A stretch of 61,509 nucleotides of DNA, taken from contig JBQLZK010000045.1 of NCBI GenBank assembly GCA_052168235.1, forward strand, positions 1-61,509. Reading direction: 5' to 3'. The notes below the pieces were generated by a model. That model searched no databases, was not told the DNA's origin, and saw nothing but the letters and a program-made list of their open reading frames with translations. Position 1 is the stretch's first letter; each line of letters opens with the position of its first letter. Both the position numbers and the translations under genes were made by a program. Positions 8,013-46,740 of this stretch are shown here, one piece after another. The DNA comes from Thainema sp. Lineage in GTDB: Bacteria > Cyanobacteriota > Cyanobacteriia > Phormidesmidales > Phormidesmidaceae.

Positions 8013-11000
8013 TTAGACAACTGGACTCCAGTTACCATTCGTGACAGGCGGCGTAATCGGTGCTGTACCGACCCGAGCACCGTTGTTATAGAACCAAACT
8101 GAGGTTTTACCCTCTACACTGTTGCGCCAGAGTAGATCGTCTGCAACTCCGTCACCATCAAAGTCAGACGCTCCTTCAATGCGCCAGTTCGGATCATCGA
8201 GCGGATCGAGTGCCTGCGTTCTCTTAGTGCCATCTGATTCAACAAACCAGACTACATTTTGGCCCGTTTCGTAATTACGCCAAATAAGGTCGTCTAGCTG
8301 CCCATCCTGATCAAAGTTACCAACACCCGCAATCTCCCAATCGCTACCTGGAACATTGTCTAACGCAATGGTGCCAATACGGTTGATACCGTTCATAACC
8401 CAGATTACGTTTTGCCCCGTTAGTTCATTGCGCCAAACCAGATCATCCCGAAGCGGACTGCTAGCAGAGAAGTCACCTACACCTCCTAGCTGCCATCCCG
8501 CTTCTGCAACAGCAGGTAGGCCAGCGGTTCCAACACGATTGGTGCCGTTCATGAACCAAACGCTGTTTTGACCCGTTGTAGAATTGCGCCAAACCAGATC
8601 ATCTTGACCATCTCCGTCGTAATCCCCAACACCTTCAATCTGCCAATTTGCACCCGTTACAGGTGGCAGAGCGCCAACTTGGGTTCGAGCATTGCTGTCA
8701 TCTAATAGCCAGATTGAATTCTGTCCTGTTACATCATTCCGCCATACAACATCCGGCAGCGCATCCCGATTGAAGTCTGGGAACTGCGAATTACCAATCA
8801 CAGCTTGCTGTCTAGCCGATGTGGTAGCCCCATCTTCATCGGTAACCTGAACGCTGATGCTGTAGTTACCCGGATCATCATAGATATGACTGATATTTTC
8901 GAAGTCAACATCACCGGCAGGCAAATCCAACGTACTGGACGAACCATCCCCCCAATTAATTGTGACGGTATGTGTGTCCGCCGGATCTGGATCAACAAAA
9001 CTACCATTGAGCCGATATGGTTGGCCACTCAGCCTTAAAGTACCCGGCTGAAGCAGCAAGTTTGCAGGCGGATCATTAGCGTCAGTTAAGTTGACAGTTA
9101 CATTTCGAGTCCCAACTGCACCATTGGCATCAGTTGCGGCAACTAAGAGTACAAAAGTAGGCTGAACCTCAAAGTTGAGATCGCCAGCATCTGCAACTGT
9201 AATTTGGCCCGTATTGCTAATTGCAAAGGCTCTGGTGCCATCACCATCTACATCGCGGTTGCCATTGTTGATTGTCCAAGCTGTAATGTTGTCGCCCTCT
9301 GGATCGGTCGCCACTACATCACCCACAACCGTGCCATTAGCTGAATTTTCGATCACGGTTAACACCTGCCCCACGGGAATCAGAGGCGGCTCATTCACAT
9401 TATTCACATTGACCGTGATCGCTTCCGTGTCAGAGAATTCGCCATCACTGACCTGAACCTGCAGCGTATAGCTGGTGGGATACGCTTCAAAATTCAGATC
9501 GTCTCTGTCAGCAACAACGAGTTCACCATTCGCGTTGATGCTAAATGCACCTGTGGAATCGCCGTCGTTATCGGGGTTGCCGGACAGAATCGTCCAAGTC
9601 AGCGCATCTTCTTCTGGATCAGCCGCCACTACATCACCAAATACGGTATCGACGGGTGAATTTTCGTCAACATTGAAGACCTGATTCGGAGCAATGGCAG
9701 GAGCTTCATTAATATCATTGAGGGCAATATTTACTGACTCTGTGTCCGTATTGCCAGCCGAATCAGTGACCTGGACATCAATTGTGTAGTTACTGGCAAA
9801 TTCGTAGTTCAGATCTTCAGAGTCTTGAACGAACAGACGCCCTGTTTGTGAGTTCAAGCCAAACGCGCTGACTCCATCACCATCAACGTCTGGATTGCCG
9901 CCTACGATAGCCCAGGTCAGGGGGTCTCCTTCCGGATCACCAGCAGAAATAAAGCCAATTTCGGTGCTGATCTCGGCATTTTCATTAATGGTAAACGTCT
10001 GCCCAGACATAATGCTGGGTGGCTCATTCACGTTATCGACTTCAATGGTAACCGTGGCTGAACCCGTTTCACCTTCCTCATCAACAGCTCTGACGGTAAG
10101 GTCATAGCTAGACGTTGTCTCAAAATCAAGTTCATCTCCATCGGCTACCGTAATCAGGCCGTTAGAATTAATCTGGAATAGGCGAATGCCATCTCCATCC
10201 GTGTCTGGATTATTAGCGGTAATAGACCAGTTCGTTACGTTGCCTTCTGGATCATTAACCATGACCATGCCAACTTCAGTTCCGTTGGCAGAATTTTCAG
10301 GCACAGTGAGGACTTGATCCGCTGGCACCACGGGTGGCTCGTTCACATTTGTCAACGTGACTGTGAAGTTTGTCACATCGCTAAATTCGCCATCGGTAAC
10401 CGTCAGCTCTAAGTCAAATGTAGAATTCGCCTCGAAATCGAGATCGTCACTGTCAGCAATGGTAATTTCGCCACTATCACTAATCAAAAAGGCACTGGTG
10501 CCATCACCATCGGTGTCAACATTGCCGTTGGTGATTGACCAGTTCAATACCTCACCGATATCCGGATCGGTCGCTGTAACGGTACCGACCACAGTGCTAT
10601 TGGCGCTATTTTCCAGTAGTGTTGCTGACAGTGTTTGGTCAGGATCAATCACAGGCGGCTCATTGACATCTGTAACTTCGACCTGAACAACGGCTGTGCC
10701 GACTTCTTCACCAGTATCTCCAGCCTGAATCGTCAAATCATATAGATTTGGCGCAGTTTCAAAGTCTAAATCATCTGCATCATTGACCAGAATTTGACCG
10801 GTTGAGTCAATGGCAAAGGCGGCATTGCCATCTCCATCTAGATCGGGATTTGACTCTGCTGTGATTGACCAAGAGAAAGTATTACTGGGTTCTCCTTCTG
10901 GATCAGACACGCTAACCTGCCCAACAGGGGTACCGACTGGGGAATTTTCAGGTATGGTAAAGAGCTGATCGGGCACAATCACAGGTGGCTCATTGACATT

Positions 11001-14000
11001 GTCGATCTGAATTGTGATATCAGCCGTATCACTAGATTCACCATCACTGGCTTGTACTGTGACGGTATAGCTCGTGTCGTAAGCCTCAAAATCCAGATCT
11101 CCACTATCGGCAACGAATAACGCGCCTGTTGTGCTATCAATGCCAAAGGCAGCTACTCCATCCCCGTCATTGTCAGGGTTGGTGCCGCTTTCAATGGTCC
11201 AGCTAGTGACATTTTCTTCCGGGTCGAGGACTTCGACCATCCCGAAAAAGGTGCCGTCGGGCGTGTTTTCGTCAACGCTAAAGCTTTGGCCATCCGGAAT
11301 ATCCGGTGGTTCATTTTCGTTATCAACTTGAATCGTGACCGTGGCTAAATCTGTATTGCCTGCTGTATCCGTTGCGCGTACTGACAGGGTGTAGCTGGAG
11401 TCTGTTTCAAAGTCTAAATCATCTGGATCTGCCACAAAGATGGTTCCCGTACTGGCATTAATGCCAAACGTAGGGGTTTGGTCGCCATCTGGATCGGGAT
11501 TGCCTCCTAAAATGGCCCATGTTAGACCGCCAACATCAGCCTCATCTGGATCATTGCCGGTGATGGTGCCAACAACGGTGTTGAATGCTGCTGATTCGCT
11601 GACCGTAAAGGTTTGTCCGTCCGGAATAGTGGGTGACTCGTTTACATCATCTAAGTCAATTTGAATGAGCTCTGTGGTGGTTGCACCAGATTCATCAATG
11701 ACGGTGACTTCAATGCCGTAGGTGGAAGTTGATTCATAATCAAGCTCATCTCCGTCTGTAACGGTAATGGTGCCTGTGCCATTAATAGCAAAGGCGTTGA
11801 TACCATCACCATCGGCATCCGTGTTGCCACCTGTGATTGCCCAAGTCGTAATATTGCCTTCCGGATCATTGGCTTCGACTGTGCCAACGACCGTACCGTT
11901 TTCGGCATTCTCTTCTACGGTCAGAATTTGCCCGACTGGAATGACAGGCGGTTCATTAATGTTATCGACTTCAACCGTAACGGTGACCTGATCTGTTAGT
12001 TCACCGTCGCTAACTTGCACTTCGAGGGTATAAGTTGAAGTGGTTTCGAAATCAAGATCATCGGCATCTGCGATCGCAATTTGCCCCATGTCATCAATCG
12101 AAAAGACAGGCGTTCCATCCATGTCTGGATCTAGATTGCCACCGATGATTGACCAGGTTAGCGTGTCCGTCGGATCGGGATCGGTCGCATTGATGGAGCC
12201 GATAACTGTACCAGTTACTTCATCCTCTGCCACTTCAAATGTCAGATCTTGGCCCGGATCAATTACTGGCGGATCATTGGCATCCGTGACCGTGATGGTA
12301 AAGGTTTCCTGATCGCTTGCACCTTGCTCATCGGTTGCTTGAATCAGCAGGTCAAATGAACTATTGGCACCTTCAAAATCGAGATCATCAGCATCATTGA
12401 CAGTTAAGGTGCCTGTTGCTGGGTCAATTGCGAAAGCCGCATTGCCATCTCCATCCAGATCTAGATTGCCATCCTCAATCGACCAGGTAATCGTACTGCT
12501 GTCGATATCATCCGCCAGCAAAATGGCAATTTCATCTCCAGCTATAGCCGACTCACTAACTTCAAACGCAAAATCCTGCGTCGGATCAATTACTGGCGGA
12601 TCATTAACTGGCGTAACGACCACTGAGATATTGCTGGTTGTACTGGATATGGCAGTGCTACCACCATTGTTAGACGCGTTGGTCACTACTAGAGAGGTTT
12701 GCCCAACCGTAAAACTTCCCCGATAGCTATTATCAATCGCCCGAACCTGCAAGGCTGGGGGTGTACCGTTGTAGTTAGCCGCCGGTCTAAACCGAAGTAG
12801 CGTATTGGCTGATAGCACTAAAGCGGCGGTATTGCTGACGCTTGGAACATTGAACCAATTAGTGCCGCCATTGGTTGAATACTGCCAGCGTCCCTGCGTG
12901 GTGGAATTGGCTGGATTGCTTATGACGGCAATCCCTGCCAACGAACTATTAGGGTCAATATCGTTAAAAACGGGTGCAACTAAATTCGACACAGAGGTGC
13001 CAGTTGGATTGAGCGCATCTTCATCAACTGCAGGCAGCGCAACATCGCCCAGCAAATTGGGAGCATCATTCGTAGCAGCGACATTAACCGTAACAGCAAC
13101 GTTATCGGTTGCACCATCATCATCTTGAACTTGCACCAGGAATGTTTCAGAACCGCTAAAGTTTATTCCTGGCGTGTAGCTGACAACTCCGTTAGCATCC
13201 ACCGAAGCCGTCCCGTTTTGAGGTGTCTGGACAACCTGCCAGGTAAATGTATCGTCGCCTGGATCGGTCACCGTTAATGCAACTGTACCAGCTGTTGTCG
13301 TATCTTCTTGAATCGTAATTGTTGGATTTGCTTGGTTAATAAGGGGTGCAACATTATTGATCGTGAATGAGGCAGTCGCCGAATCAGTTTCGTCAGTCGC
13401 CGTATCGTTAACCGTTACGGTGATTGCATACGGCGCTCCATCCGGAGCATTATCTACATACTGGTGGTCAACGTTAAAGAAGAAAATACCAGTGCCATTC
13501 CCATCAACGTCCCCTCCATTGATCACGGTGATATCAGTCGTGGTTTCATCACCCCAATCAATCGTTGCGGTGTAATTAGCGGGGTCAACGCCATCACTAT
13601 CTCTAAACGTTGCATTCAGCGTGACAGTTGTTCCTTCGTTTTGTGGCGAACTTGGATCAACCGCAACGTTAGTAATTTCTGGTGCTACAAAGGTTGATGT
13701 GTAGGTATTTAATGTTTGAGTCGTAAACGCGAGTGTGCGTGGTTCATGGGCTAACGTACCAACAACTTGATCGAGCTGCCAATCTCCTCCCTGTTCTGCA
13801 TTTCCCACTAAACGCTGAGAGGCATGAATGGTCGCCTGAGTCAGATTCTGTAAGTGAGTAAGTAATTCTGAACCCGCATCTCCCAAAGCAACTCGGCAAC
13901 CATACAAGAAAATATGGGATGCCGACAAACCCCATTGACTCAACTCTGCTTTGTATTGTCGAATCGTGTCTAAACTGAGCTGTTGATTTCCTAGATATAA

Positions 14001-14246
14001 GCAACCTGGCGAACCATGTGACACAACGTGCAGTGCAACTGGGATATCGCTCCCATAGTCTGTTCTGATGCGCTGCAGGATGTGGGTAATCTGCTGAATA
14101 CCATCGGCTTGAGCATCCAGTAAATAAACAGCAACCCCAGCTTTGGCTCCGCTGAGCAAATACTGGTAATCGTTGACCCCTGGATCAATAATTAAAACCT
14201 GAAGGGCGGTCGTAGAAGCATTGGAAGGATGAAGAGTAGTAGTCAT
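8013..14246 (-). CDS. Large surface/secreted adhesin: DUF4347 + PKD-like + multiple cadherin repeats + C-terminal FG-GAP/VCBS repeats
   Basis: LHVVSHGSPG..LYGCRVA (DUF4347); IDWGD/INWGDG (PKD-like); repeated NEPP...V.EN...A.DP....W.I..GN.D.DGDG..AF.I...DLDFE; GDYDGDGQDDLVWRN repeats. Confidence 0.92.
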   Translation of the reverse strand: MTTTLHPSNASTTALQVLIIDPGVNDYQYLLSGAKAGVAVYLLDAQADGIQQITHILQRIRTDYGSDIPVALHVVSHGSPGCLYLGNQQLSLDTIRQYKAELSQWGLSASHIFLYGCRVALGDAGSELLTHLQNLTQATIHASQRLVGNAEQGGDWQLDQVVGTLAHEPRTLAFTTQTLNTYTSTFVAPEITNVAVDPSSPQNEGTTVTLNATFRDSDGVDPANYTATIDWGDETTTDITVINGGDVDGNGTGIFFFNVDHQYVDNAPDGAPYAITVTVNDTATDETDSATASFTINNVAPLINQANPTITIQEDTTTAGTVALTVTDPGDDTFTWQVVQTPQNGTASVDANGVVSYTPGINFSGSETFLVQVQDDDGATDNVAVTVNVAATNDAPNLLGDVALPAVDEDALNPTGTSVSNLVAPVFNDIDPNSSLAGIAVISNPANSTTQGRWQYSTNGGTNWFNVPSVSNTAALVLSANTLLRFRPAANYNGTPPALQVRAIDNSYRGSFTVGQTSLVVTNASNNGGSTAISSTTSNISVVVTPVNDPPVIDPTQDFAFEVSESAIAGDEIAILLADDIDSSTITWSIEDGNLDLDGDGNAAFAIDPATGTLTVNDADDLDFEGANSSFDLLIQATDEQGASDQETFTITVTDANDPPVIDPGQDLTFEVAEDEVTGTVIGSINATDPDPTDTLTWSIIGGNLDPDMDGTPVFSIDDMGQIAIADADDLDFETTSTYTLEVQVSDGELTDQVTVTVEVDNINEPPVIPVGQILTVEENAENGTVVGTVEANDPEGNITTWAITGGNTDADGDGINAFAINGTGTITVTDGDELDYESTSTYGIEVTVIDESGATTTELIQIDLDDVNESPTIPDGQTFTVSESAAFNTVVGTITGNDPDEADVGGLTWAILGGNPDPDGDQTPTFGINASTGTIFVADPDDLDFETDSSYTLSVRATDTAGNTDLATVTIQVDNENEPPDIPDGQSFSVDENTPDGTFFGMVEVLDPEENVTSWTIESGTNPDNDGDGVAAFGIDSTTGALFVADSGDLDFEAYDTSYTVTVQASDGESSDTADITIQIDNVNEPPVIVPDQLFTIPENSPVGTPVGQVSVSDPEGEPSNTFSWSITAESNPDLDGDGNAAFAIDSTGQILVNDADDLDFETAPNLYDLTIQAGDTGEEVGTAVVQVEVTDVNEPPVIDPDQTLSATLLENSANSTVVGTVTATDPDIGEVLNWSITNGNVDTDGDGTSAFLISDSGEITIADSDDLDFEANSTFDLELTVTDGEFSDVTNFTVTLTNVNEPPVVPADQVLTVPENSANGTEVGMVMVNDPEGNVTNWSITANNPDTDGDGIRLFQINSNGLITVADGDELDFETTSSYDLTVRAVDEEGETGSATVTIEVDNVNEPPSIMSGQTFTINENAEISTEIGFISAGDPEGDPLTWAIVGGNPDVDGDGVSAFGLNSQTGRLFVQDSEDLNYEFASNYTIDVQVTDSAGNTDTESVNIALNDINEAPAIAPNQVFNVDENSPVDTVFGDVVAADPEEDALTWTILSGNPDNDGDSTGAFSINANGELVVADRDDLNFEAYPTSYTLQVQVSDGEFSDTEAITVNVNNVNEPPLIPVGQVLTVIENSANGTVVGDVVATDPEGDNITAWTINNGNRDVDGDGTRAFAISNTGQITVADAGDLNFEVQPTFVLLVAATDANGAVGTRNVTVNLTDANDPPANLLLQPGTLRLSGQPYRLNGSFVDPDPADTHTVTINWGDGSSSTLDLPAGDVDFENISHIYDDPGNYSISVQVTDEDGATTSARQQAVIGNSQFPDFNRDALPDVVWRNDVTGQNSIWLLDDSNARTQVGALPPVTGANWQIEGVGDYDGDGQDDLVWRNSTTGQNSVWFMNGTNRVGTAGLPAVAEAGWQLGGVGDFSASSPLRDDLVWRNELTGQNVIWVMNGINRIGTIALDNVPGSDWEIAGVGNFDQDGQLDDLIWRNYETGQNVVWFVESDGTKRTQALDPLDDPNWRIEGASDFDGDGVADDLLWRNSVEGKTSVWFYNNGARVGTAPITPPVTNGNWSPVV

Positions 14247-14932
14247 AGCGTTTTTTGATACAGCACTACAGAGATTGACGGGTTGCAAAGACCAATACCC
14301 ATCAGATAGCGATTTTCGGTAGAAACCAATAAACCATAAACGCAGTCTGCGAATTTGATTTCTAGCTGTTACTTATGTTTACGTCTGCTGTGTCCACCTA
14401 CGTCTAAGCAACTGCGCTAGCAGCTGTTTACTTTTTCTGCCAACGTTTTTGCAAGAGCAAAGTCAAGTATTTTACAAACGGGAGTAAGTATAGTACAAAC
14501 TCCTCAGCTCGACATTTTTTGCGATGAAATAATTTAATCTTAGATAGAAACGATTAAAAAACTTTGATGTCTCTATCGAGAACGCCAGCGTCTAAATCTG
14601 TCCAAAGGAGTAGTGTCGAAAACCATTGGATGACATAAAATGCGCTAAATCCAGCGTATGCCCTAAGTTTTGCAGCTTAGGGCAGCATTTGAAATGCTGA
14701 CTTGGCACTCCTACTTCGTGAGTTAATCTGATTTCGCGAGTAATTCGCGAGTAATAAGATTGTAAACTCCAATTTTCGTTGAATAGGGGCAGTTAGCAGC
14801 ATCAGCATTTTCGTGTGCAGCTTGCCAAGAAAAAACAACCTTCTCTGCTGCCACTATTGCAAAACGTAAGCAGTAGAAAAGATTGTTTGCTTAGCTACAT
14901 TACTGTTGTATAGCAGTTAGTATCATTCCCTT

Positions 14933-15597
14933 TTACCAAGGGAGAACTTCGCCGTTGCTGTGCCAGAATGTGCCTGTATTTTCCATCGATAAGGCATCAA
15001 TTCTTGCCAATAAACCCTTCACGGCCTCTTCAGTGGTAATTCCATTTTGGGTAAAGCCAGTCATGCGGGTGCTAACCAAGCCGGGATGCAGAATAGCAAC
15101 GGCAATTCTACGCGGTTTCAAATCGTGGGATAACGATTTGCCTGCCATGGATACGGCCACCTTAGACATCCGATAGCCATAGGAACCACCGGATGTGTTG
15201 TCCTCCATTGACCCCATACGGCTGGTCATGATTGCAACTTTACCGCCATCTCGGATCAACGGCAGTAAAGCATGGGTCAAGCGCAGAGTTCGATCGCATT
15301 TACCTCAAACTGCTTGCGGATACTGGCAAAATCCAAATCATCTAGGCTAACGCGTTCGAGAATACCAGCGTTGTTGATTAAGACATCCAGCGTAACGCCC
15401 TTTAGTTTCTGAGCTAGCTGAGCAACCGATTCATCCGACGTGATATCGATATCGGTTTCAACCCGCACTCCCAGCGAATCTAGCTCTTCCGAAGATACCC
15501 GACACACTGCAATGACATCGTCACCACGCTGCTGAAGCTGCTTGCAGTATTCATAGCCAATGCCACGGTTGGCTCCGGTTACTAGATAAGTCGCCAT
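14933..15597 (-). pseudogene. Short-chain dehydrogenase/reductase (SDR), frameshifted near 15290
   Basis: TGANRGIG and NNAG in one frame; SRMGS, YRMSK, LHPG in the next; one missing base restores a continuous frame. Confidence 0.85.
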
Positions 15598-15696
15598 ATC
15601 GTACTCCAAGTCAAACGTTAGAATACTAAACTCCGGGTATAGCCTACTGCAACTCTGCCACCAAAGTCTCTGCCCTAAGCCGTAGCATTGTCGTGA

Positions 15697-16671
15697 TCAA
15701 GCCCAGAGTCGCGTATAGACTTGGCCGTCATCCCAAATCGATTTGATTTGTGTGCCAACCGCGCTGAAGAAGCCCCAGAAATAGAATACGCCGCGTACTG
15801 CAATCTTCAAAGGTGAGCCGCTCTTATGGCAAGGTGGACGGCCCAACACGTGACAGTCAAACAGTCGCCAATACAGCCGCAGGCACTGCCCTACAGTCAA
15901 GTGCTTAAATGACATCAAGAAATGATTGTGGTAATGTGTGACCTGATATTTTAGCGATCGCGTACTGATGTCATGACAGCCGCCCGTTGGTTCACCTAAA
16001 TGGATCAGTACCGCTTGGGGGTCGTACCAAATCTGATAGTCTGTATGTCGAATTTCGAGGCAAAAGTCGGATTCTTCCCGAACGGCACTGCCCCGGAAAC
16101 GCTCATCAAACCGTAGGCCATGCTGGGTAAAGATCTCCCGCCGAAATGACATATTGCAACCGCGGGCTGAAATTACGGGTTGCGGTTGAGTCGTGTGGAC
16201 TAAATCAAGGTAATACCAAGCGATACCAGGATCCATTGCTTGGGGCGGCAAGTACTCTTGAGTGAACCCATCCGGTGAGTTTTCCATAATCATCCGGTCA
16301 AGCACTCGTCCGGCCACCGCACCCACCTTAGGCTGATCGATAAAGTTCTGGGCGTGGGCTTTGAGATAGCCTGGTTCCATCCGCACATCATCATCAATAA
16401 ATACAACGATGTCGCCAGTTGACTGGCTGACGCCGTAGTTGCGCGCTCCCGGTAAACTGGCCCACTTGAGCCGCAGCCAGCGAATTTTGCCTTGCTCTTC
16501 TAAACTGCGCAAGCATTCAGTCGTCTCTGGCTCATGCTCTTGGGTCTGATCGACAACCAACACTTCAAAGGTGGGATAATCCTGCTGCAATACGTCCATC
16601 AGCGTGTCCCGCAGCGGTTCTTCGCGCTGATAGGTGGGGACAATCACAGAGATAGAGGGCCAGTTTGTCAT
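15697..16671 (-). CDS. hpsN: GT2 glycosyltransferase, hormogonium polysaccharide HpsN-like
   Basis: SVIVPTY, VVDQ, ARNYG, FIDDD, GCNMSFRR, REESDF motifs; AMDPGIAWYYLDLVHT segment recalled from HpsN. Confidence 0.75.
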   Translation of the reverse strand: MTNWPSISVIVPTYQREEPLRDTLMDVLQQDYPTFEVLVVDQTQEHEPETTECLRSLEEQGKIRWLRLKWASLPGARNYGVSQSTGDIVVFIDDDVRMEPGYLKAHAQNFIDQPKVGAVAGRVLDRMIMENSPDGFTQEYLPPQAMDPGIAWYYLDLVHTTQPQPVISARGCNMSFRREIFTQHGLRFDERFRGSAVREESDFCLEIRHTDYQIWYDPQAVLIHLGEPTGGCHDISTRSLKYQVTHYHNHFLMSFKHLTVGQCLRLYWRLFDCHVLGRPPCHKSGSPLKIAVRGVFYFWGFFSAVGTQIKSIWDDGQVYTRLWA

Positions 16672-17097
16672 AGCTCAAGATAAGGATTTAGGGCGAGGTT
16701 CCACTGATAAGATACCCATTCTGTGAGCATGGGCGACATCTTGCACGGAGAGTCTCACATCTTGCTCTCAATCTCAGACTTGCTCTCAATCCCAGAAAGA
16801 TGATGTTGTCGTCGTGAGTACTGACGGGCTGCTGGTTTCTATCTAACTTTGCAGAATTCTGCAATGAAAATTGCTGAAAAGAGCAATCAAGCCTGCCTGA
16901 AAACGTATTCAACTTCGCAGAAAGATTCAATCACTGCAAAAAGAGTCTGGCTTAGGTTGTGTACAGAGTGAGATGCCATAAGGATAAGAGTTCCCAATTA
17001 ATGTTGGAATCTAACTGACTTTTAATAACTCCTTTCCATCATTTTTTGACTCACGGGTCACTAGCTAAAGCCGCATTCTCTAGCCGGAACAATCGCC

Positions 17098-17364
17098 ATG
17101 TTTTCCTCTAAGCCTATCTTTACGCCTCATGTTCAAGTAGAACTTGTGTATCTGCAAGCAGATTTAGATAATCTCCTGCTTGATCTGTTGAATCGGATTG
17201 ATTCCAAGCTTGATCCGGTTCAAAAGGCCACTATATTACATGATTTTGAACATTCTCATGATCGGCTGAAACGCTACGGGCTGATCTGGCCAAGATCTAG
17301 TATTCATAATCAATCAGGAATTCCATATTCAGATTATTGTTGCAAAATTCAGGCAAAGTTATAG
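17098..17364 (+). CDS. Small hypothetical protein
   Basis: 88-aa ATG ORF co-oriented ahead of the desaturase/PKS cluster. Confidence 0.45.
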   Translation: MFSSKPIFTPHVQVELVYLQADLDNLLLDLLNRIDSKLDPVQKATILHDFEHSHDRLKRYGLIWPRSSIHNQSGIPYSDYCCKIQAKL

Positions 17365-17447
17365 GCAGCGCTTGTCCTACATAAACAGTAAATCGAGTTT
17401 TATTTATAAACTTAACGCCGTCCACTTTTCCTAGGAAATTAAGCGTA

Positions 17448-19064
17448 ATGAGTAATAACATCAAGGCTCAAGTCCTAGAGCGCCAAAGGACTGAAAGTCC
17501 CCAACAGCTTGAAGATTTAGAATCAGTTGATACAGTTCAAACAGTTAATAGTTCTAACTCACAGACTGCTCAGAAGCCAATTGATCTGCCTAATCTTGAC
17601 CCGAATTTACAGCAGAACAATTCAACTCAAAAACCAGCAATGGTTGCACCGGAACGCACCAGTACATTGATGCCGAATGTTTGGGTGTATGACGGTGATG
17701 CCTATGATTTAACGGAATTTATGACGAAACATCCGGGCGGCGAATTCTTCATTGGCCGGATGAAAAATCGCGATATTACGACTCTGGTTAACGTGCTTCA
17801 CCGCAACCCAGCCAAGGCCAAGCAGCGGCTCAAACAGTATGCGCTGGGCCGAAAAGCTACGCCGGAAGATCTGCATCCCAAATGCAATGCGCCACCGTTT
17901 TTATTCAAACCCAATTTTGACGGTCGCGTGGATACGCCGACGTTTGATTTTGACAATCCTGACCAGTTGCTCAACCGAATCCGCGATCGCATCAATCATC
18001 CCACTGTTCAAGCGCAAATTGCCCGTGTGGATGTTTGGTTTGATGTAACGGCTGTGGTGCTGCTGGTGATGTACGTAGCGGTGCAGGTATTGCGACTTGA
18101 GTTAACTCCTTGGATGCCGCTTTATCTATTTGTGCCGCTGATGGTGGGGCTGCGAATTGCCCTGTCTGGGGTGGGTCATTATCTCAACCATCGGCCAATG
18201 GTAGGGTTCAATAAGTTTGCCTGTCATGTCTTTGATATCAATTACGTACCGATGGCGTTTGTGGTGGTTGATGGTCACACGCTGCTGCATCATCCCTACA
18301 CGCAAACGGATGTCGATGTGAAGCAAAATGTCTTCACGGCGATGATGGATTTACCCCGCTATTATCGGATGCCGCTGCATACGCTGCACAAGTTGGGGCA
18401 CGTAGCGACGGGCATGTTGATGCGGATGGCTGAGCTGTGCATTAACGGCGTGAAGTACGGCGTAGAAGACATGTATGGCAATCGCCAGCGAGCGTTTCCT
18501 CACTATGCGGGACTGGTGGCAATGCGGCTGTTGCTGCTGGGCGAGTGCGTGATATTTGCGCTCAATGGCCAATTTTGGGCTTGGCTGGCTCAGTTCGTGG
18601 TGACGCTGTGGATCAGCACGTTCATGATCGTGGCCAGCCATGATTTTGAAGATGATCAGACCCACACTGACGTGAAGGCAGAATCGGACTGGGCGGTTTG
18701 GCAAATCCAGACCTCCTATGACCTGACGATGATTGGCAACAAATATGTTGACTGCTTTCTGTCGGCGGGTCTAAGCCCCCATCGCGTCCATCACGTTCTG
18801 CCCTACCAACGCAGCGGATTCGCCAACATTATCAGTGAAGACATCGTGCGAGAAGAAGCCGCCAAGTTTAACCTGCCCTGGCATCCACCGAAAAACTTCT
18901 TTTGCGATCGCTTACCGCTGATGTCTCGGCACTATCTGCTCAGTCCCTCCCGCCAAGCCAAAGAGGAAAATCTCAACATCTGGCAAGAACACTTCAATCC
19001 ATTAGCCCTCAAAACAGCCGTCACCTACGTCTACAAAGGCTTCATCGGTATCGGCTCAATTTGA
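17448..19064 (+). CDS. Cytochrome b5-fused fatty acid desaturase-like protein
   Basis: YDLTEFMTKHPGG heme motif; His boxes HYLNH, HTLLHH, HRVHH; TM helices. Confidence 0.9.
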   Translation: MSNNIKAQVLERQRTESPQQLEDLESVDTVQTVNSSNSQTAQKPIDLPNLDPNLQQNNSTQKPAMVAPERTSTLMPNVWVYDGDAYDLTEFMTKHPGGEFFIGRMKNRDITTLVNVLHRNPAKAKQRLKQYALGRKATPEDLHPKCNAPPFLFKPNFDGRVDTPTFDFDNPDQLLNRIRDRINHPTVQAQIARVDVWFDVTAVVLLVMYVAVQVLRLELTPWMPLYLFVPLMVGLRIALSGVGHYLNHRPMVGFNKFACHVFDINYVPMAFVVVDGHTLLHHPYTQTDVDVKQNVFTAMMDLPRYYRMPLHTLHKLGHVATGMLMRMAELCINGVKYGVEDMYGNRQRAFPHYAGLVAMRLLLLGECVIFALNGQFWAWLAQFVVTLWISTFMIVASHDFEDDQTHTDVKAESDWAVWQIQTSYDLTMIGNKYVDCFLSAGLSPHRVHHVLPYQRSGFANIISEDIVREEAAKFNLPWHPPKNFFCDRLPLMSRHYLLSPSRQAKEENLNIWQEHFNPLALKTAVTYVYKGFIGIGSI

Positions 19065-41346: not shown

Positions 41347-41919
41347 TTAGGTAATTTGTTGAGCTAATTTTTCCATCGCTTCGGCGCTGGGTTCAAATTT
41401 GCTGGCATAGGTTTGCAGCAGGCTATTCACCTGCGACATGACATCGTCACCAGCGGACTTGGCGATGGCTTGGCGCTCAGGGAAGAATTCTGGGCGATCT
41501 AGGTTGCGGGCGATGGCTTCGCTGATTTGGTTGGAAATCAGGTCAGCTAGTTCTTCTTTGGCCCGTTCTCTCTGATAGTTGGCCCCTTCTTCTGTGGTGG
41601 CGTAGAGGGGAGGTAATCGGTTGAGGGCATAGGCGGCGATGTCGCCCAGATCGAGGGTGCAATCACTGGAGGCTTCGACTTCGGCGACCCGTGCGATCGC
41701 TTCGGTCAGTACCAGCTCTTCCATGACGTTAATAAACTGCTTGCGGGGGACGGCAACGACCTCACCAGTTAGGAGAGCGCCCATTAGTCGATCAAGAGCC
41801 ATATACTCTTCAATCGACAGTTCGGCAGCGGTATCACAAATGCGACCAACCTCTGCCTCCATTGCTGGTGTTAGGTATCCGTCTTGTAATGCCTGTTCAA
41901 CAATTTTTTCAATGCTCAT
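41347..41919 (-). CDS. ComFB-family protein
   Basis: NVMEELV...DIAAYALNRLPPLYAT ComFB motif. Confidence 0.9.
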   Translation of the reverse strand: MSIEKIVEQALQDGYLTPAMEAEVGRICDTAAELSIEEYMALDRLMGALLTGEVVAVPRKQFINVMEELVLTEAIARVAEVEASSDCTLDLGDIAAYALNRLPPLYATTEEGANYQRERAKEELADLISNQISEAIARNLDRPEFFPERQAIAKSAGDDVMSQVNSLLQTYASKFEPSAEAMEKLAQQIT

Positions 41920-42588
41920 ATGTCGATTAGTACTCAAAAGAACGTCTAGTTTGCAATGTGGCCAGAACAGAATTGGGGGGACGTTTGGTAGATGGGTCTG
42001 GGGTAGGGACTACATCTTCAGTGGTACCAACGCTTTAGCTACCTAACCGGACTGGTCTGACTTTAGTTTGCCCAAGTTGGATGGGAGACTAGCATGGATG
42101 TGTAACTTTACAAAACTTTCATGCGGCTTGGACAATGGGTGAGCTGGTAGGTCGATCTTAGTGGAGTATTCAGTTTATTGCGATCGCATAATGAGAAAAG
42201 TGGCTAGGCACGCTGATGAAAATTGCACAACTGTCTCTGGTGAGCTTGACGGGGTAGCACTTTCTGGTAGGGTGGCTAAATCACATTTTCCTAAATCATC
42301 AGACCTCAGAGCGCGGATTCGTTCGCGCTCTTTATTTATGTCTCTTAATATTTAAGTCTTCTATTTTTAAGGCAACTTGATCTATTAAGTTGCTGGTATT
42401 TAATGAGTTGGTCAGTATAAAAAATTACTTCGTTTTCTATTTTGGCAGAGCGTGAAATACTTGCCCTTCATACGCTTTGTGTGAATATCAAGTAATTGTA
42501 AAAAGACATCAAAATTCTTGGTACGTTTGGGGACGATTGGGAAAACTTATGAATAAGTAAGCTATACACCGACGCAGTTCGATCAACC

Positions 42589-42667
42589 GTAGGGTGTGTC
42601 AGGCATAGCCATAACGCACCACTCGATAAGGCTTCGGTGCGTTTTGTGTCGCTAAATAAACTTCTAA
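42589..42667. repeat. Degenerate GTAG-type REP doublet
   Basis: GTAGGGTGTGTCAGGCATAGCCATAACGCACC followed by an inverted GGTGCGTT... copy. Confidence 0.55.
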
Positions 42668-42704
42668 TTATCAGGGCTTTATAGCTGAGGATCTGAGAAC
42701 TAAT

Positions 42705-43328
42705 ATGCCAAATGTTAAGCTCAACACCTTAATTGAGAATGAAATCAGCCGCCTTTCAGAGTTGCACAACGTAGACTCATCAGTTTTAGGCGAATTTGCT
42801 CAATTTGTAATTGCAAACGCTAAAGCCAAGCAACCAGCTAAATCATCGAAGCCAACTAAATCAGCTAAATCATCGAAGCGATCAAAAGCTACAGAAGCAA
42901 CAGAAGCAACAGATGTAGCAGATTTATCGATGACTGATTTGAGAAATGCCGTTTATCAGTATTTCGAAGTTAAGGATACAACCAAGCTGAAAAAATCTGG
43001 CTCCTTCAAAATGGCAACTGACGGCATGGGAGATCTAGATTTCCGTCTCAAAGAAACTTGGGAAATGCTCTATCGCAAATTCATCGGAGTTTTGCCAGGT
43101 GAGGAATCACAAGAAGGCTATGGGTGCATTAATGGAGTAGATATCTTCAAGTATTTCAAACCTTGGGATGTATTTGGTTTGGATTCAAAAACAGCCAGTT
43201 CGGAAGACATCAAACAAGCTTACCGGAATCTCAGTAAAACCTATCATCCTGATATTCCAAAGACAGGGGATGCAAAGATTTTTGATCGAATTAATACCAT
43301 GTATAAGAGCATCAGTGTGGAGGCATGA
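42705..43328 (+). CDS. Protein with C-terminal J-domain (class C DnaJ-like co-chaperone)
   Basis: PWDVFGL..ASSEDIKQAYRNLSKTYHPD...F..IN..Y with intact HPD; K/S/A-rich linker. Confidence 0.85.
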   Translation: MPNVKLNTLIENEISRLSELHNVDSSVLGEFAQFVIANAKAKQPAKSSKPTKSAKSSKRSKATEATEATDVADLSMTDLRNAVYQYFEVKDTTKLKKSGSFKMATDGMGDLDFRLKETWEMLYRKFIGVLPGEESQEGYGCINGVDIFKYFKPWDVFGLDSKTASSEDIKQAYRNLSKTYHPDIPKTGDAKIFDRINTMYKSISVEA

Positions 43329-44347
43329 AGATGACGAAAAAACTTGCTCAGTTTACCATCAAAGAAAAAGATCTTGCCGCTGCACTAGAAATCAGTCATC
43401 AAAGACTTAGAGAAATTATTGATTTTTTTGATTCAGATCCAAACGACGAGTGGGAATTACGCGAAGATGATCATTTCGTAGTAATCAATAAACAGTGGAA
43501 TGAGCGCTTGTTCTCCAAACATGGTGCTTTTGCGATCGCAAAATACATGGACTCTACTGAGAAGAAAAGTATTTGGGATCAAATTGTTGAGTTCATCACA
43601 AAGCATAAACAGAAGTTGCGGAATGCTTTTGTTTGTCAAAAAATCCATGAAAACAGTAGCTCCTTGACAAAGAGGAATAACCGACATTACCTTTCCAAAA
43701 AAGATACTGTTAATATCCTCTGTACCAGTTATGCAAAACTGAATAAAGTTTTCCGCGATATTCAACAGTCAGAGCGGCCTTTAGCCTACGGGGAAGACTT
43801 CGATGATATTGATGGAACTCGTTACTATTCTCTGTTTGGATTTTTCCGTATCAGCAAAATCTTGTCGCAAGAGCTGACTGTAAAGGATCGTCGAGAGTGG
43901 TGTTCTGCAATCGAAATCGTTGGAGATAGAACATTCAAGCAAATTATCAGCGCAGAAGAGGCGAGAAAGAGGAGAATCGCTTCAGCCAAGAGAAAAGCTA
44001 GAACTAGAGATAGAGGAACATGCCAGATTACTCAACGTAAGCCAGAAGTTTATGATCAATTTAATTTAGCTGTTCATCACATTTTCTCTGCCAAAGATTA
44101 TCCACATCTAGAATCAAGTATTGATAATCTAATTACCATCCGTGAGGAAATCCATAAAGAATTTCACACTTGGAATGGTGGATTTCAACGGCCATGTACA
44201 GTTGATGATTTAATCCGCTTTGTAATGGAGGTTTACCCTGCTGAGTATGAAATTCTGCATAAGCTTAATACGTTAAAAGTACAGCTTGGAACACATACAC
44301 CTGTTCAAGGAGTTCAAGCACTACCTAAACCTGGTAAGGCTGCATAA
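43325..44347 (+). CDS. HNH endonuclease-domain protein with N-terminal putative DNA-binding repeats
   Basis: RDRGTCQIT...AVHHIF...DNLITI..EIHKEFH HNH signature; ATGA overlap with J-domain gene. Confidence 0.8.
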   Translation: MKMTKKLAQFTIKEKDLAAALEISHQRLREIIDFFDSDPNDEWELREDDHFVVINKQWNERLFSKHGAFAIAKYMDSTEKKSIWDQIVEFITKHKQKLRNAFVCQKIHENSSSLTKRNNRHYLSKKDTVNILCTSYAKLNKVFRDIQQSERPLAYGEDFDDIDGTRYYSLFGFFRISKILSQELTVKDRREWCSAIEIVGDRTFKQIISAEEARKRRIASAKRKARTRDRGTCQITQRKPEVYDQFNLAVHHIFSAKDYPHLESSIDNLITIREEIHKEFHTWNGGFQRPCTVDDLIRFVMEVYPAEYEILHKLNTLKVQLGTHTPVQGVQALPKPGKAA

Positions 44348-44400
44348 ATCATTATTGCAAGTTGCATCTTTTTTAACCTGGAAAGCTGAACTTAAAACAA

Positions 44401-44433
44401 AAAGGCCCTTCAGTCGTGAGACTGGAGGGCTTT
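44401..44433. terminator. Intrinsic terminator-like hairpin after HNH gene
   Basis: AAAGGCCCTTCAGTC-GTGA-GACTGGAGGGCTTT. Confidence 0.65.
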
Positions 44434-44672
44434 GCAATGAACTCCACATTTTTGCTTAACGCATATCAACATTATGAAATCCTCACTTCATAAAGACTTC
44501 CGTTAAATAGCGGAATTTTCACTAAAACCCTATCCGTAAATCAACGCAAATTCATTTTTCAGCTTTTCTCAGCTTCATCTAAATTACTGAAGAATTCGAT
44601 TAATATCGCCCAAAACGCCCTCCAGTCAGGTTTAATGAATCACTACCCTTCATCACCCTGAGATAAAGAACC

Positions 44673-46373
44673 GTGGCCCGCTCCATTGCTCAATTCTGGA
44701 AACAGCGCACTCCTGGACTACAACAACTACTGGCTTACCAACCCAACTGGCTACGCGGTGACCTGCTCGCAGGCTTAACCGTCGCCGCCTACCTCATTCC
44801 TCAATGCATGGCCTATGGTGAGCTCGCAGGCGTCGAACCCGTCGCTGGCCTGTGGGCCATCCTGCCGCCGATGATCCTCTACGCCATCTTCGGTTCCTCA
44901 CCCCAGATGTCCATCGGCCCCGAATCCACCACCGCCGTCATGACCGCCGCTGCGATCGCACCTCTCGCCGCCGCCGATGGCAGCAACTACGCCAGCCTCG
45001 CCGCCCTGCTGGCCGTCATGGTCGGGGTCGTGTGCATCATCGGTCACTTTGCCCGTCTTGGTTTTCTCGCCAACCTGCTCTCTCGACCCCTGCTAATCGG
45101 CTACATGGCAGGCGTCGCCCTGATTATGATTGGCGGACAGCTCGGCAAAGCCAGCGGTATTTCTATTGAAGCCGACACCGTTTATGGGCAGTTCTTCGAG
45201 TTTTTTACCCGCCTTGGCGAAATTCATCCGCCCACGCTGATTCTGTCCATTGCTGTACTGGTCTTCCTGTTCACCATTCGCCACTATTTCAAAAATGCCC
45301 CTGGCCCCCTGCTGGCCGTCCTGCTCGCCACCACAGCCGTTGCCGTCATTGACCTCGATCAGCAAGGCGTCGTCGTGATTGGCGAAATTCCTGCCGGACT
45401 GCCCCAGCTTGCCCTGCCGAACGTCGCGCTCGATCATCTGCTGCCCACGATTGCCTCCGCCATTGGGATTGCCCTGGTCGGCTATTCAGACAACGTCCTC
45501 ACCGCCCGTGCCTTTGCCGCCCGCAACCACTATAAAATCGACGCCAATCAGGAACTACTGGCCCTCGGTATCGCCAACGTTGGCAACGGATTCATGCAGG
45601 GCTTCCCCATCAGCAGCAGCGGTAGCCGCACCGCCATTGGTGACTCGCTGGGCAGCAAATCCCAGCTTTTTTCGCTGGTCGCCTTCGTCGTCGTCATCAT
45701 CGTGCTGCTGTTCCTGCGTCCGCTGCTGGCCCTGTTTCCCAGTGCGGCGCTAGGAGCGATCGTTATTTACGCTGCCACTAAACTAATTGAACTGCCGGAG
45801 TTTAAGCGACTGCTCCAGTTCCGCCGCAGCGAATTTGTTCTGGCCATCTGTACGTTTGCTGGCGTACTGCTGACCGATATTCTGGTCGGAGTTGCGATCG
45901 CAGTTGGCCTTTCAATTATTGAACTGCTCACCCGGATTACTCGGCCTCATGATGCCATTCTGGGCCAAGCTCCCGGTCTACCTGGTCTGCACGACATCGA
46001 CGATTGGGACAACGCAACCACAATTCCCGGTTTAGTGATCTATCGCTACGACGCACCGCTCTTCTTTGCCAACGTGGAAAACTTCCAGCAGCGGGCATTG
46101 CAAGCCATCGAGCAGGAACAGCATCCGGTCGAGTGGTTTGTGCTGAATACAGAAGCGATTGCCGAAATCGACATCACCGCCGCCGATGCCCTCAGCGAAC
46201 TGCACGATGAACTTGCTCAACAAGGCATTACCTTCGCGTTAACGCGGGTGAAACAAGACCTCTATGCCCAGCTCAAAACCTCTGGTCTGCTGGAAAAGAT
46301 TGGTCGCGATCGCATTTACTTCACGCTCCACACCGCAATTGACGCATTTCACAATCGAGGAAAAGAGAACTGA
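44673..46373 (+). CDS. SulP/SLC26 anion permease with STAS domain
   Basis: GDLLAGLTVAAYLIPQCMAY, ANQELLALG, SSGSRT, PLFFAN, IDITA. Confidence 0.95.
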   Translation: MARSIAQFWKQRTPGLQQLLAYQPNWLRGDLLAGLTVAAYLIPQCMAYGELAGVEPVAGLWAILPPMILYAIFGSSPQMSIGPESTTAVMTAAAIAPLAAADGSNYASLAALLAVMVGVVCIIGHFARLGFLANLLSRPLLIGYMAGVALIMIGGQLGKASGISIEADTVYGQFFEFFTRLGEIHPPTLILSIAVLVFLFTIRHYFKNAPGPLLAVLLATTAVAVIDLDQQGVVVIGEIPAGLPQLALPNVALDHLLPTIASAIGIALVGYSDNVLTARAFAARNHYKIDANQELLALGIANVGNGFMQGFPISSSGSRTAIGDSLGSKSQLFSLVAFVVVIIVLLFLRPLLALFPSAALGAIVIYAATKLIELPEFKRLLQFRRSEFVLAICTFAGVLLTDILVGVAIAVGLSIIELLTRITRPHDAILGQAPGLPGLHDIDDWDNATTIPGLVIYRYDAPLFFANVENFQQRALQAIEQEQHPVEWFVLNTEAIAEIDITAADALSELHDELAQQGITFALTRVKQDLYAQLKTSGLLEKIGRDRIYFTLHTAIDAFHNRGKEN

Positions 46374-46392: not shown

Positions 46393-46740
46393 TTACTTGT
46401 CCAAAATCTGCCGAATCTCCTTCAGCTCAGTCAGAATCGCCCGCAGCAGCTCCTGGGTTTTGCTATCTGGCGGTTCCTTGACCTCAATCGTCACGCTTTG
46501 GCCCAGGACATCTTTAGCAAACCGCGCCACCTCGTTGGGGTGGAACATCAGCGGATCTTCTTTATTCGTCCGGTATTCTGGATTCAGCAACGTCGGATTG
46601 TAGGGCGGATTCAGCGACCCATTCTCCGTATTGGCATAGCGGTAGACCGACGCTCGCGATCGGCCAATGGCCTTTTGCACCGCCTCCACATCCATCAAAA
46701 TCGCTGTCGATGTCGATGTAGGTATCGTTTCTTCACTCAT
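46393..46740 (-). CDS. Small HTH (resolvase/excisionase-like) conserved cyanobacterial protein
   Basis: MDVEAVQKAIGRSRASVYRY helix-turn-helix. Confidence 0.75.
   Translation of the reverse strand: MSEETIPTSTSTAILMDVEAVQKAIGRSRASVYRYANTENGSLNPPYNPTLLNPEYRTNKEDPLMFHPNEVARFAKDVLGQSVTIEVKEPPDSKTQELLRAILTELKEIRQILDK

Follow-up and report, generated by a model that had tools for sequence, protein, structure and literature searches.

A J-domain protein gene and an HNH-type gene form a strict cyanobacterial pair: a candidate DnaK-coupled nuclease module

What does a J-domain co-chaperone do in the constant company of a predicted nuclease? The question is raised by two overlapping genes, here called J and H, on a 61,509-nucleotide stretch of DNA from Thainema sp. 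(GenBank assembly GCA_052168235.1, contig JBQLZK010000045.1). This stretch, the window of the present analysis, is contig C45 of a cyanobacterial assembly of 7.54 Mb in all. An initial annotation, made from the letters of the sequence, described two AT-rich genes with an ATGA stop/start overlap between a ComFB gene and a SulP gene, and the open reading frames (ORFs), the GC content of 0.37-0.41 and the Pfam matches of both flanks agree with that description. The evidence assembled below favours a self-contained, cyanobacteria-specific module in which a nuclease is coupled to DnaK and which is probably toxin-antitoxin-like or defensive; the probability of this reading is put at roughly one half.

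The two genes are obligately linked, co-evolve and are passed on only as a pair. Among 401 sampled cyanobacterial genomes, J lies directly upstream of H and on the same strand at all 22 loci that have a full-length H. A wider scan of bacteria and archaea, with one genome per species, found J upstream of H at 70 of 71 loci, so that the homologues do stay paired, a point which the initial annotation had named as a check; the single unpaired locus (L076) holds a 5'-truncated remnant of H. At the related loci the stop codon of J and the start codon of H overlap or nearly abut, within a few bases. Clustering of all neighbouring ORFs revealed no third recurrent gene, the other neighbours being common to close kin only. 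The pairwise identities of J and H are correlated (r 0.84 over 1653 pairs). Two divergent pairs are found together in one genome twice, in G294 (L006 and L028) and in a Cyanobium metagenome-assembled genome (MAG; L111 and L116/L117). In both cases the pairs belong to different clades of the family and every H stands with its own J; the H proteins of G294 have 40% and 28-31% identity to that of the window.

The loss of the two genes is asymmetric. The 401-genome sample contains 22 genomes with both genes, three with H fragments alone (G125, G204 and G380, with stop codons inside the match in two of them), two with an intact J alone (G041 and G200) and one with a J fragment. Across all loci examined there is no case of an intact H without J: H alone takes the form of fragments only, in the three genomes just named and at L076. 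The J-only proteins fall inside a well-supported clade which also includes paired members, and the loss of H in these genomes is therefore secondary. The counts of orphans are small, but an intact orphan J and a broken orphan H are what would be expected if H needs J. A metagenome scan with the J of Planktothrix gave nine loci, of which five have H, one has a weak H match at the contig end, one is decayed and two are too short for a pairing call. In a decaying metagenomic operon (L138, 68-1649), J has lost its 5' end to ORFs of an IS630-type transposase, and all that is left of H is a 60-residue N-terminal remnant.

J is a genuine J-domain protein with a basic helix II. The J-domain with its intact HPD motif, recognised in the initial annotation, scores above the Pfam cut-off (PF00226 DnaJ, residues 155-204, 37.1 bits against 27.8, E 3.4e-9), and the same family is found in 119 of 120 J homologues among the matches listed. 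Across the 31 aligned sequences no variation is seen in the motif (H181-P182-D183) or in K178, and K170 is nearly invariant. The AlphaFold model, with a predicted local distance difference test score (pLDDT) of 85.6, is predicted to contain the helical hairpin of a J-domain. The HPD motif and basic helix II of J-domains are the trigger of ATP hydrolysis in DnaK/Hsp70. It follows that J should couple some partner to DnaK and, by genetic logic, H would be by far the best candidate. A search with J residues 1-152 returned the family itself only, and 118 of the 120 proteins among the matches listed have a J-domain; the N-terminal and middle parts are covered by no fold match. The linker between these parts varies in length or is missing across the alignment, and a relative's J carries a 9-nt deletion at 42891.

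H looks like an intact His-Me finger protein in which the catalytic residues are kept, and it is a predicted nuclease. Its HNH motif, with degenerate CxxC pairs as first described, is matched by PHROG HNH family 144 (residues 213-285, E 5.6e-6), and the structural model adds support for the HNH fold in a predicted beta-beta-alpha-metal domain. All 33 aligned sequences keep C233, H251, H252, N268 and H281 unchanged, and H277 and C291 are nearly invariant. Two CxxC zinc pairs are found in many, but not all, HNH subfamilies; their places are taken in H by C233-x2-T236 and H277-x3-H281, with C291 as a further conserved cysteine. H matches neither Pfam HNH nor HNH_2 at E <= 1, and no Pfam family reaches its cut-off. 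One family member (P0267) comes to 20.0 bits against the HNH_2 cut-off of 21, and HNH or HNH_2 is found in 19 of 27 weak relatives.

The remainder of H is built of two alike modules and a 43-residue helix which precedes the beta-beta-alpha domain in the AlphaFold model (pLDDT 87.3). Each module is modelled as a strand-helix-helix unit, behind which come a beta-hairpin wing and then a helix. The resemblance of two N-terminal segments had been pointed out in the initial annotation, where they were likened to KilA-N/ORF6N domains. The resemblance stands, the modules being homologous (hhalign probability 80.9%, E 1.2e-5, 68 columns). The likeness to KilA-N/ORF6N found no support among the matches listed: Pfam gives no match to these families at E <= 1, and the best 50 matches of each of the two VIA searches contain MerR-type domains but neither of these families. 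The N-terminal ~70 residues are predicted to adopt a MerR-type winged helix-turn-helix (HTH) fold. This domain-level picture comes from VIA-align; H has no match to the Pfam MerR families at E <= 1, the whole chain has no Foldseek match at E <= 0.001, and comparison of its alignment profile with PDB sequences gave chance-level matches only (best E 0.12). All 33 sequences have an acidic module 1, an unusual property for a wing that binds DNA. The long helix (residues 187-229) may form a dimerising coiled coil.

A MerR-type fold encoded behind a J-protein gene brings to mind a known arrangement. According to PMC4063869, the gene 3' of the J-protein gene in cbpA-cbpM encodes a MerR-like protein which binds the J-domain in competition with DnaK, and HspR is encoded in dnaJ/cbpA operons. 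Because MerR-fold genes follow J-protein genes in cbpA-cbpM of gamma-proteobacteria and in dnaJ/cbpA-hspR, as they appear to do in J-H, the architecture of the pair is less arbitrary than it seems. There are differences: H has no Pfam MerR match and joins two modules to an HNH nuclease domain, and J, unlike proteins of the CbpA/DnaJ class II type, has 207 residues and a C-terminal J-domain. H could accordingly be a CbpM/HspR-like regulator, its MerR-type modules binding the J-domain or DnaK and/or operator DNA and its HNH domain serving as a DNA clamp or retaining a minor activity; it would then control the co-chaperone activity of J or the transcription of stress genes. The gene order, which PMC4063869 gives for cbpA-cbpM and dnaJ-hspR, the acidity of module 1, which resembles a protein-binding surface, and the degenerate zinc ligands speak for such a regulator. 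Yet the His-Me finger keeps its catalytic His, Asn and His in all 33 sequences, which is evidence in favour of a working nuclease; at the sequence level H matches neither MerR nor CbpM, and a crude 8-mer count over the upstream regions of 60 loci found no common operator motif. A mainly regulatory H is improbable.

The cassette is accessory, specific to cyanobacteria and self-contained. A collection of 5.8 billion proteins contains 216 homologues of H and 262 of J, and all the named ones are cyanobacterial. The family is compact, since 1.84 billion representatives, scanned exhaustively with HMMER, gave only 214 matches at E <= 0.001 (56 at E <= 1e-30). H is present in 25 of the 401 genomes and in 19 of 156 genera; the sample includes two other genomes of the window's family, and H was found in neither. 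The 71 loci of the wider scan carry 66 cyanobacterial names, four of the form 'uncultured bacterium' and that of one Sphingobacterium MAG, and the taxa span Prochlorococcus, Cyanobium, Microcystis, Crocosphaera and Synechocystis salina to Calothrix and Nostoc. The sole non-cyanobacterial name belongs to a contig titled Sphingobacterium thalpophilum MAG (L113), whose J and H resemble the picocyanobacterial type (39% and 31% identity to the window, respectively); our guess is that it is mis-binned.

Both genes are functional and under strong purifying selection, the ratio of nonsynonymous to synonymous substitutions (dN/dS) against the nearest relative (95% identity) being 0.049 for J and 0.038 for H. 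Their composition is foreign-like. The neighbourhood of the pair in the window (42200-44600) stands at a GC of 0.37-0.41 between flanks of 0.45-0.62, the GC at third codon positions (GC3) is 0.365 in J and 0.331 in H as against 0.50-0.67 in seven of eight scored neighbouring genes, and the pair lies below its flanks in GC at 45 of 46 loci, the average gap being 9.2 points. In a genome of the same genus (G401) the entire region is present at 90% identity. In other members of the family, whose other genera have ComFB and SulP, no match for the pair was seen in a DNA search, nor did a clean empty site come to light. ComFB and SulP stand side by side and convergent in another genus of the family (G407:C133:13592-15841), whereas in the window they are divergent with J-H between them. 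This difference in orientation points to a local rearrangement and not to a simple insertion, and no clean insertion boundary can be defined.

The patchy, AT-rich locus might also belong to a selfish element of the homing type, in which H is a free-standing homing endonuclease spreading its own locus and J is cargo or helper. The HNH domain of H is nearest to HNH/HNH_2 proteins, and NUMOD3 motifs, which are typical of homing endonucleases, occur in two of the 27 weak relatives. However, H is single copy in its own genome and lies outside any intron or intein, neither 50,697 phage records nor IMG/VR yielded a relative, the position is stable within lineages, the tree tracks taxonomy and no clean empty site was found, ComFB and SulP being differently oriented in G407. 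A homing element is highly improbable.

Several observations weigh against a conflict role. In the H tree, members of one order mostly fall together (15 label changes; after shuffling the mean is 29.3 and the minimum 10), although one clade of 20 rows, the window among them, mixes Nostocales, Nodosilineales, Prochlorotrichales, Pseudanabaenales and others. With synteny stable within lineages, the tree resembles a long vertical descent accompanied by losses more than the rapid turnover of defence genes. No relatives were found in the phage records, in 72,556 plasmid records or in IMG/VR. The 5027 models of PADLOC-DB 2.0 give no match to J or to H at E <= 1, in keeping with the initial annotation, which did not recognise the pairing as a named system. 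The intact J-only genes mean that J can persist without H, and nuclease activity of H is not guaranteed because the usual zinc-binding CxxC pairs of HNH domains are replaced.

A location in defence islands, to be expected of a defence system, was mostly not borne out, and the signal is not evident. The eight nearest ORFs of 17 loci (136 proteins; no matched control loci) were scanned, and strongly scored known defence genes lie near one of the 17. At this locus, L045, they encode a type IV methyl-directed restriction enzyme (1e-266) and a helicase of the PDC-S28 family (5e-113). Two further loci (L042 and L044) have candidate PDC families nearby, and the remaining PADLOC matches of neighbours are generic (kinase, ABC, SMC, IscS and Nth domains). 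Pfam matches identify neighbours of the toxin-antitoxin type at L042 (PIN, Phd/YoeB and NT/HEPN), an integrase at L037, IS605 OrfB at L041, a DDE transposase at L033 and NACHT at L039. Most neighbours are housekeeping genes, including those within 13 kb on either side of the pair in the window. L045 itself (genome G342, 8414-18019) is the one clear defence-island setting among the loci scanned: the pair is found there between an HNH-HIT fusion, a BrnT toxin, the DinG-like PDC-S28 helicase and a type IV enzyme with PLD, ResIII and DUF3427 domains.

These findings keep alive another explanation, in which J is a private co-chaperone of a chromosomal DNA enzyme, much as HscB serves IscU. H would be an ordinary nuclease for DNA processing or repair, specific to a lineage, or else a protein of the nucleoid, which J folds, assembles or recycles, and neither would have a role in conflict. 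The taxonomy-tracking tree with its stable synteny, the housekeeping neighbourhoods with strong defence genes at one of 17 loci, and the absence from the phage and plasmid collections searched all fit, as do the strong purifying selection and the presence of both genes in RNA-library contigs from a natural biofilm. On the other hand, wider retention would be expected of a housekeeping enzyme than 25 of 401 genomes and neither of the two further family members in that sample; the pair is foreign-like in GC and GC3 throughout, decay and loss have occurred repeatedly and independently, and some genomes hold two divergent copies together. This explanation is rather unlikely. The patchiness, the foreign-like composition, the asymmetry of the orphans and the existence of chaperone-dependent immune sensors, considered below, favour a conflict-type role, and toxin-antitoxin-like addiction or abortive defence is the most likely role of the pair.

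How a conflict module of this kind might work can be outlined. The family-specific N-terminal and middle parts of J would hold H, and the J-domain would load DnaK onto it. Module 1 of H is the likely docking site for J or DnaK, as suggested by its CbpM/HspR-type fold and its acidity in every member, while the binding of DNA would fall to module 2 and the basic helices. The conformation or oligomeric state of H, and hence its DNA binding and cutting, would depend on free Hsp70. When DnaK is titrated by proteotoxic stress or by a flood of phage proteins, H would change its state and cut DNA. The switch could work in either direction, by restraint or by activation of H. A narrower version, in which the module provides immunity or addiction by guarding the host Hsp70, with J keeping the HNH nuclease on DnaK and titration freeing a nuclease that destroys DNA, is less likely than not; the pair would then act as a sensor of chaperone availability with a co-chaperone of its own, confined to cyanobacteria.

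The features of the locus are collected in Table 1. Of the doublet of repetitive extragenic palindromic (REP) elements initially placed upstream of the operon, one element is a dispersed repeat of ~33 nt, which is also copied in the relatives G401 and G412; the second is an ordinary hairpin that folds no better than shuffled sequences (z -1.0). The terminator-like hairpin reported downstream was recovered, and its fold is matched by none of 200 shuffles; a consensus terminator scan did not call it. A sigma-70 scan gave two promoter-like sites, against a mean of 6.5 in shuffled sequence, with none immediately 5' of J, and an Rfam scan of 41900-44750 gave a single sub-threshold match (sR12, 18.5 bits against a cut-off of 38).

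Table 1. Features of the J-H locus, numbered along the window; residue numbers refer to the protein named
Feature	Position	Strand	Details
ComFB gene, flank	41347-41937	minus	Pfam 78.3 bits
Dispersed ~33-nt repeat, REP-like	42589..42621	.	upstream of operon; 5 further genome copies, E <= 0.01
Shine-Dalgarno-like GAGGA	42688..42692	+	12 nt ahead of J start codon; sequence
Gene J	42705..43328	+	207 aa; ORF
J N-terminal helical hairpin			residues 8-41; AlphaFold model
J linker			residues 42-72; disordered, Lys/Ser/Thr-rich
9-nt-periodic direct repeats	42832..42885	+	encode the variable J linker; repeat family D1
J middle domain			residues 73-150; family-specific, strongly conserved, well predicted; AlphaFold model
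J-domain of J	43155..43325	+	residues about 151-207; C-terminal; helices I-III, without helix IV
HPD codons of J	43245-43253	+
ATGA stop/start overlap of J and H	43325..43328	+	read in sequence; translational coupling
Gene H	43325..44347	+	340 aa; ORF
H module 1, MerR-type winged HTH (predicted)	43349..43567	+	residues 9-81; conserved FFDSDPNDEW wing
H module 2, second winged-helix module (predicted)	43640..43879	+	residues 106-185; mostly net positive
Long basic helix of H	43883..44011	+	residues 187-229; DSSP on model; net positive in 32/33
HNH / His-Me finger domain of H (predicted)	44012..44290	+	residues 230-322
H key codons	C233 44021-23; H251-H252 44075-80; N268 44126-28; H281 44165-67	+
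Strong terminator-like hairpin	44402..44433	+	3' of operon; weak U tract; -24.6 kcal/mol, z -4.7
SulP/STAS permease gene, flank	44673-46373		Pfam 334 bits

Signs of transcription of the pair come from a relative of ~95% identity, for which RNA-library contigs from three metatranscriptome runs of one biofilm study bridge the J-H junction. One contig corresponds exactly to 42577-44348 and ends in adapter, and another begins at 42593; both starts fall at the region of the ~33-nt repeat. The bridging of the junction, the contig of 42577-44348 and a flat DNA run suggest a discrete J-H transcript, at contig level and from a single study in which DNA carry-over is possible. A contig of the ComFB 5' region (41900-42119) has a depth 10- to 17-fold above that of the J-H contig, with the DNA run flat at 25, so that ComFB looks strongly expressed in the relative's biofilm.

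The spacer between ComFB and J is AT-rich and 767 nt long. It contains two plus-strand terminator-like hairpins, at 42308-42331 (a 10-bp stem, -16 kcal/mol, z -3.3) and at 42371-42394, with no convincing gene before either; they could represent a small RNA or leftovers of an earlier insertion. The HIP1 palindrome GCGATCGC occurs in the upstream spacer (42180-42187) and in gene H (43533-43540), both copies being inside a longer common stretch of 15 nt (repeat families D2 and I3). Between SulP and Ppx/GppA, a minus-strand ORF of 115 aa (46393-46740) has no Pfam family at E <= 1e-5, its best match being a faint HTH_22 (E 0.21).

The known systems closest to J-H include those of the toxin-antitoxin type. 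Toxin-antitoxin-chaperone (TAC) modules encode a SecB-like chaperone within the cassette. Like TAC and type II toxin-antitoxin systems, J-H is small, self-contained and translationally coupled, with the smaller gene first, and is patchy, AT-rich and scattered among ordinary genes. As in type II systems, the upstream partner survives as an orphan and the nuclease partner is never intact alone, in small numbers. Unlike a TAC cassette, J-H encodes a co-chaperone only and would borrow the DnaK of the host. The type IV restriction enzymes EcoKMcrA, TagI and VcaM4I and Cap5 of the cyclic oligonucleotide-based antiphage signalling systems (CBASS) also combine a DNA-binding domain with HNH. They differ from H, which has predicted MerR-type winged helices at its N-terminus and replaced CxxC pairs; they are not known to have an obligatory J-domain partner, and the PADLOC models for such systems miss H.

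Involvement of the Hsp70 system in the sensing or regulation of conflict, as proposed for J-H, has precedents. According to PMC12169576, phage sensing by bNACHT25 requires the host DnaJ, and PMC7159879 describes GAP1-N2 GTPase conflict systems with HSP70/GrpE and DnaJ-fused proteins. These systems are centred on NACHT or GTPase proteins and have no sequence relation to J-H; they are not known to include the pairing of a stand-alone, dedicated J-protein with an HNH nuclease. A literature search, from which most subscription journals fall outside coverage, found no paper on a J-domain/HNH pairing. Already known, then, are the parts and the linkage of a J gene to a MerR gene. New are the joining of that linkage to a predicted HNH nuclease, the family-specific client region of J and the strict cyanobacterial pair.

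J-domain proteins determine the clients of Hsp70, and to our knowledge very few bacterial J-proteins have a private, genetically linked client. J-H offers a small and clean system for the gating of an enzyme by Hsp70, spread from picocyanobacteria of the Prochlorococcus kind to the Nostocales. If the pair does act in conflict, the availability of chaperone would be an added principle of sensing in bacterial immunity or toxin-antitoxin biology, and attention would be drawn to an accessory module that has gone unstudied in bloom-forming genera, Microcystis for example. If the pair instead serves a housekeeping function, it would represent an unknown chaperone-dependent DNA enzyme specific to cyanobacteria.

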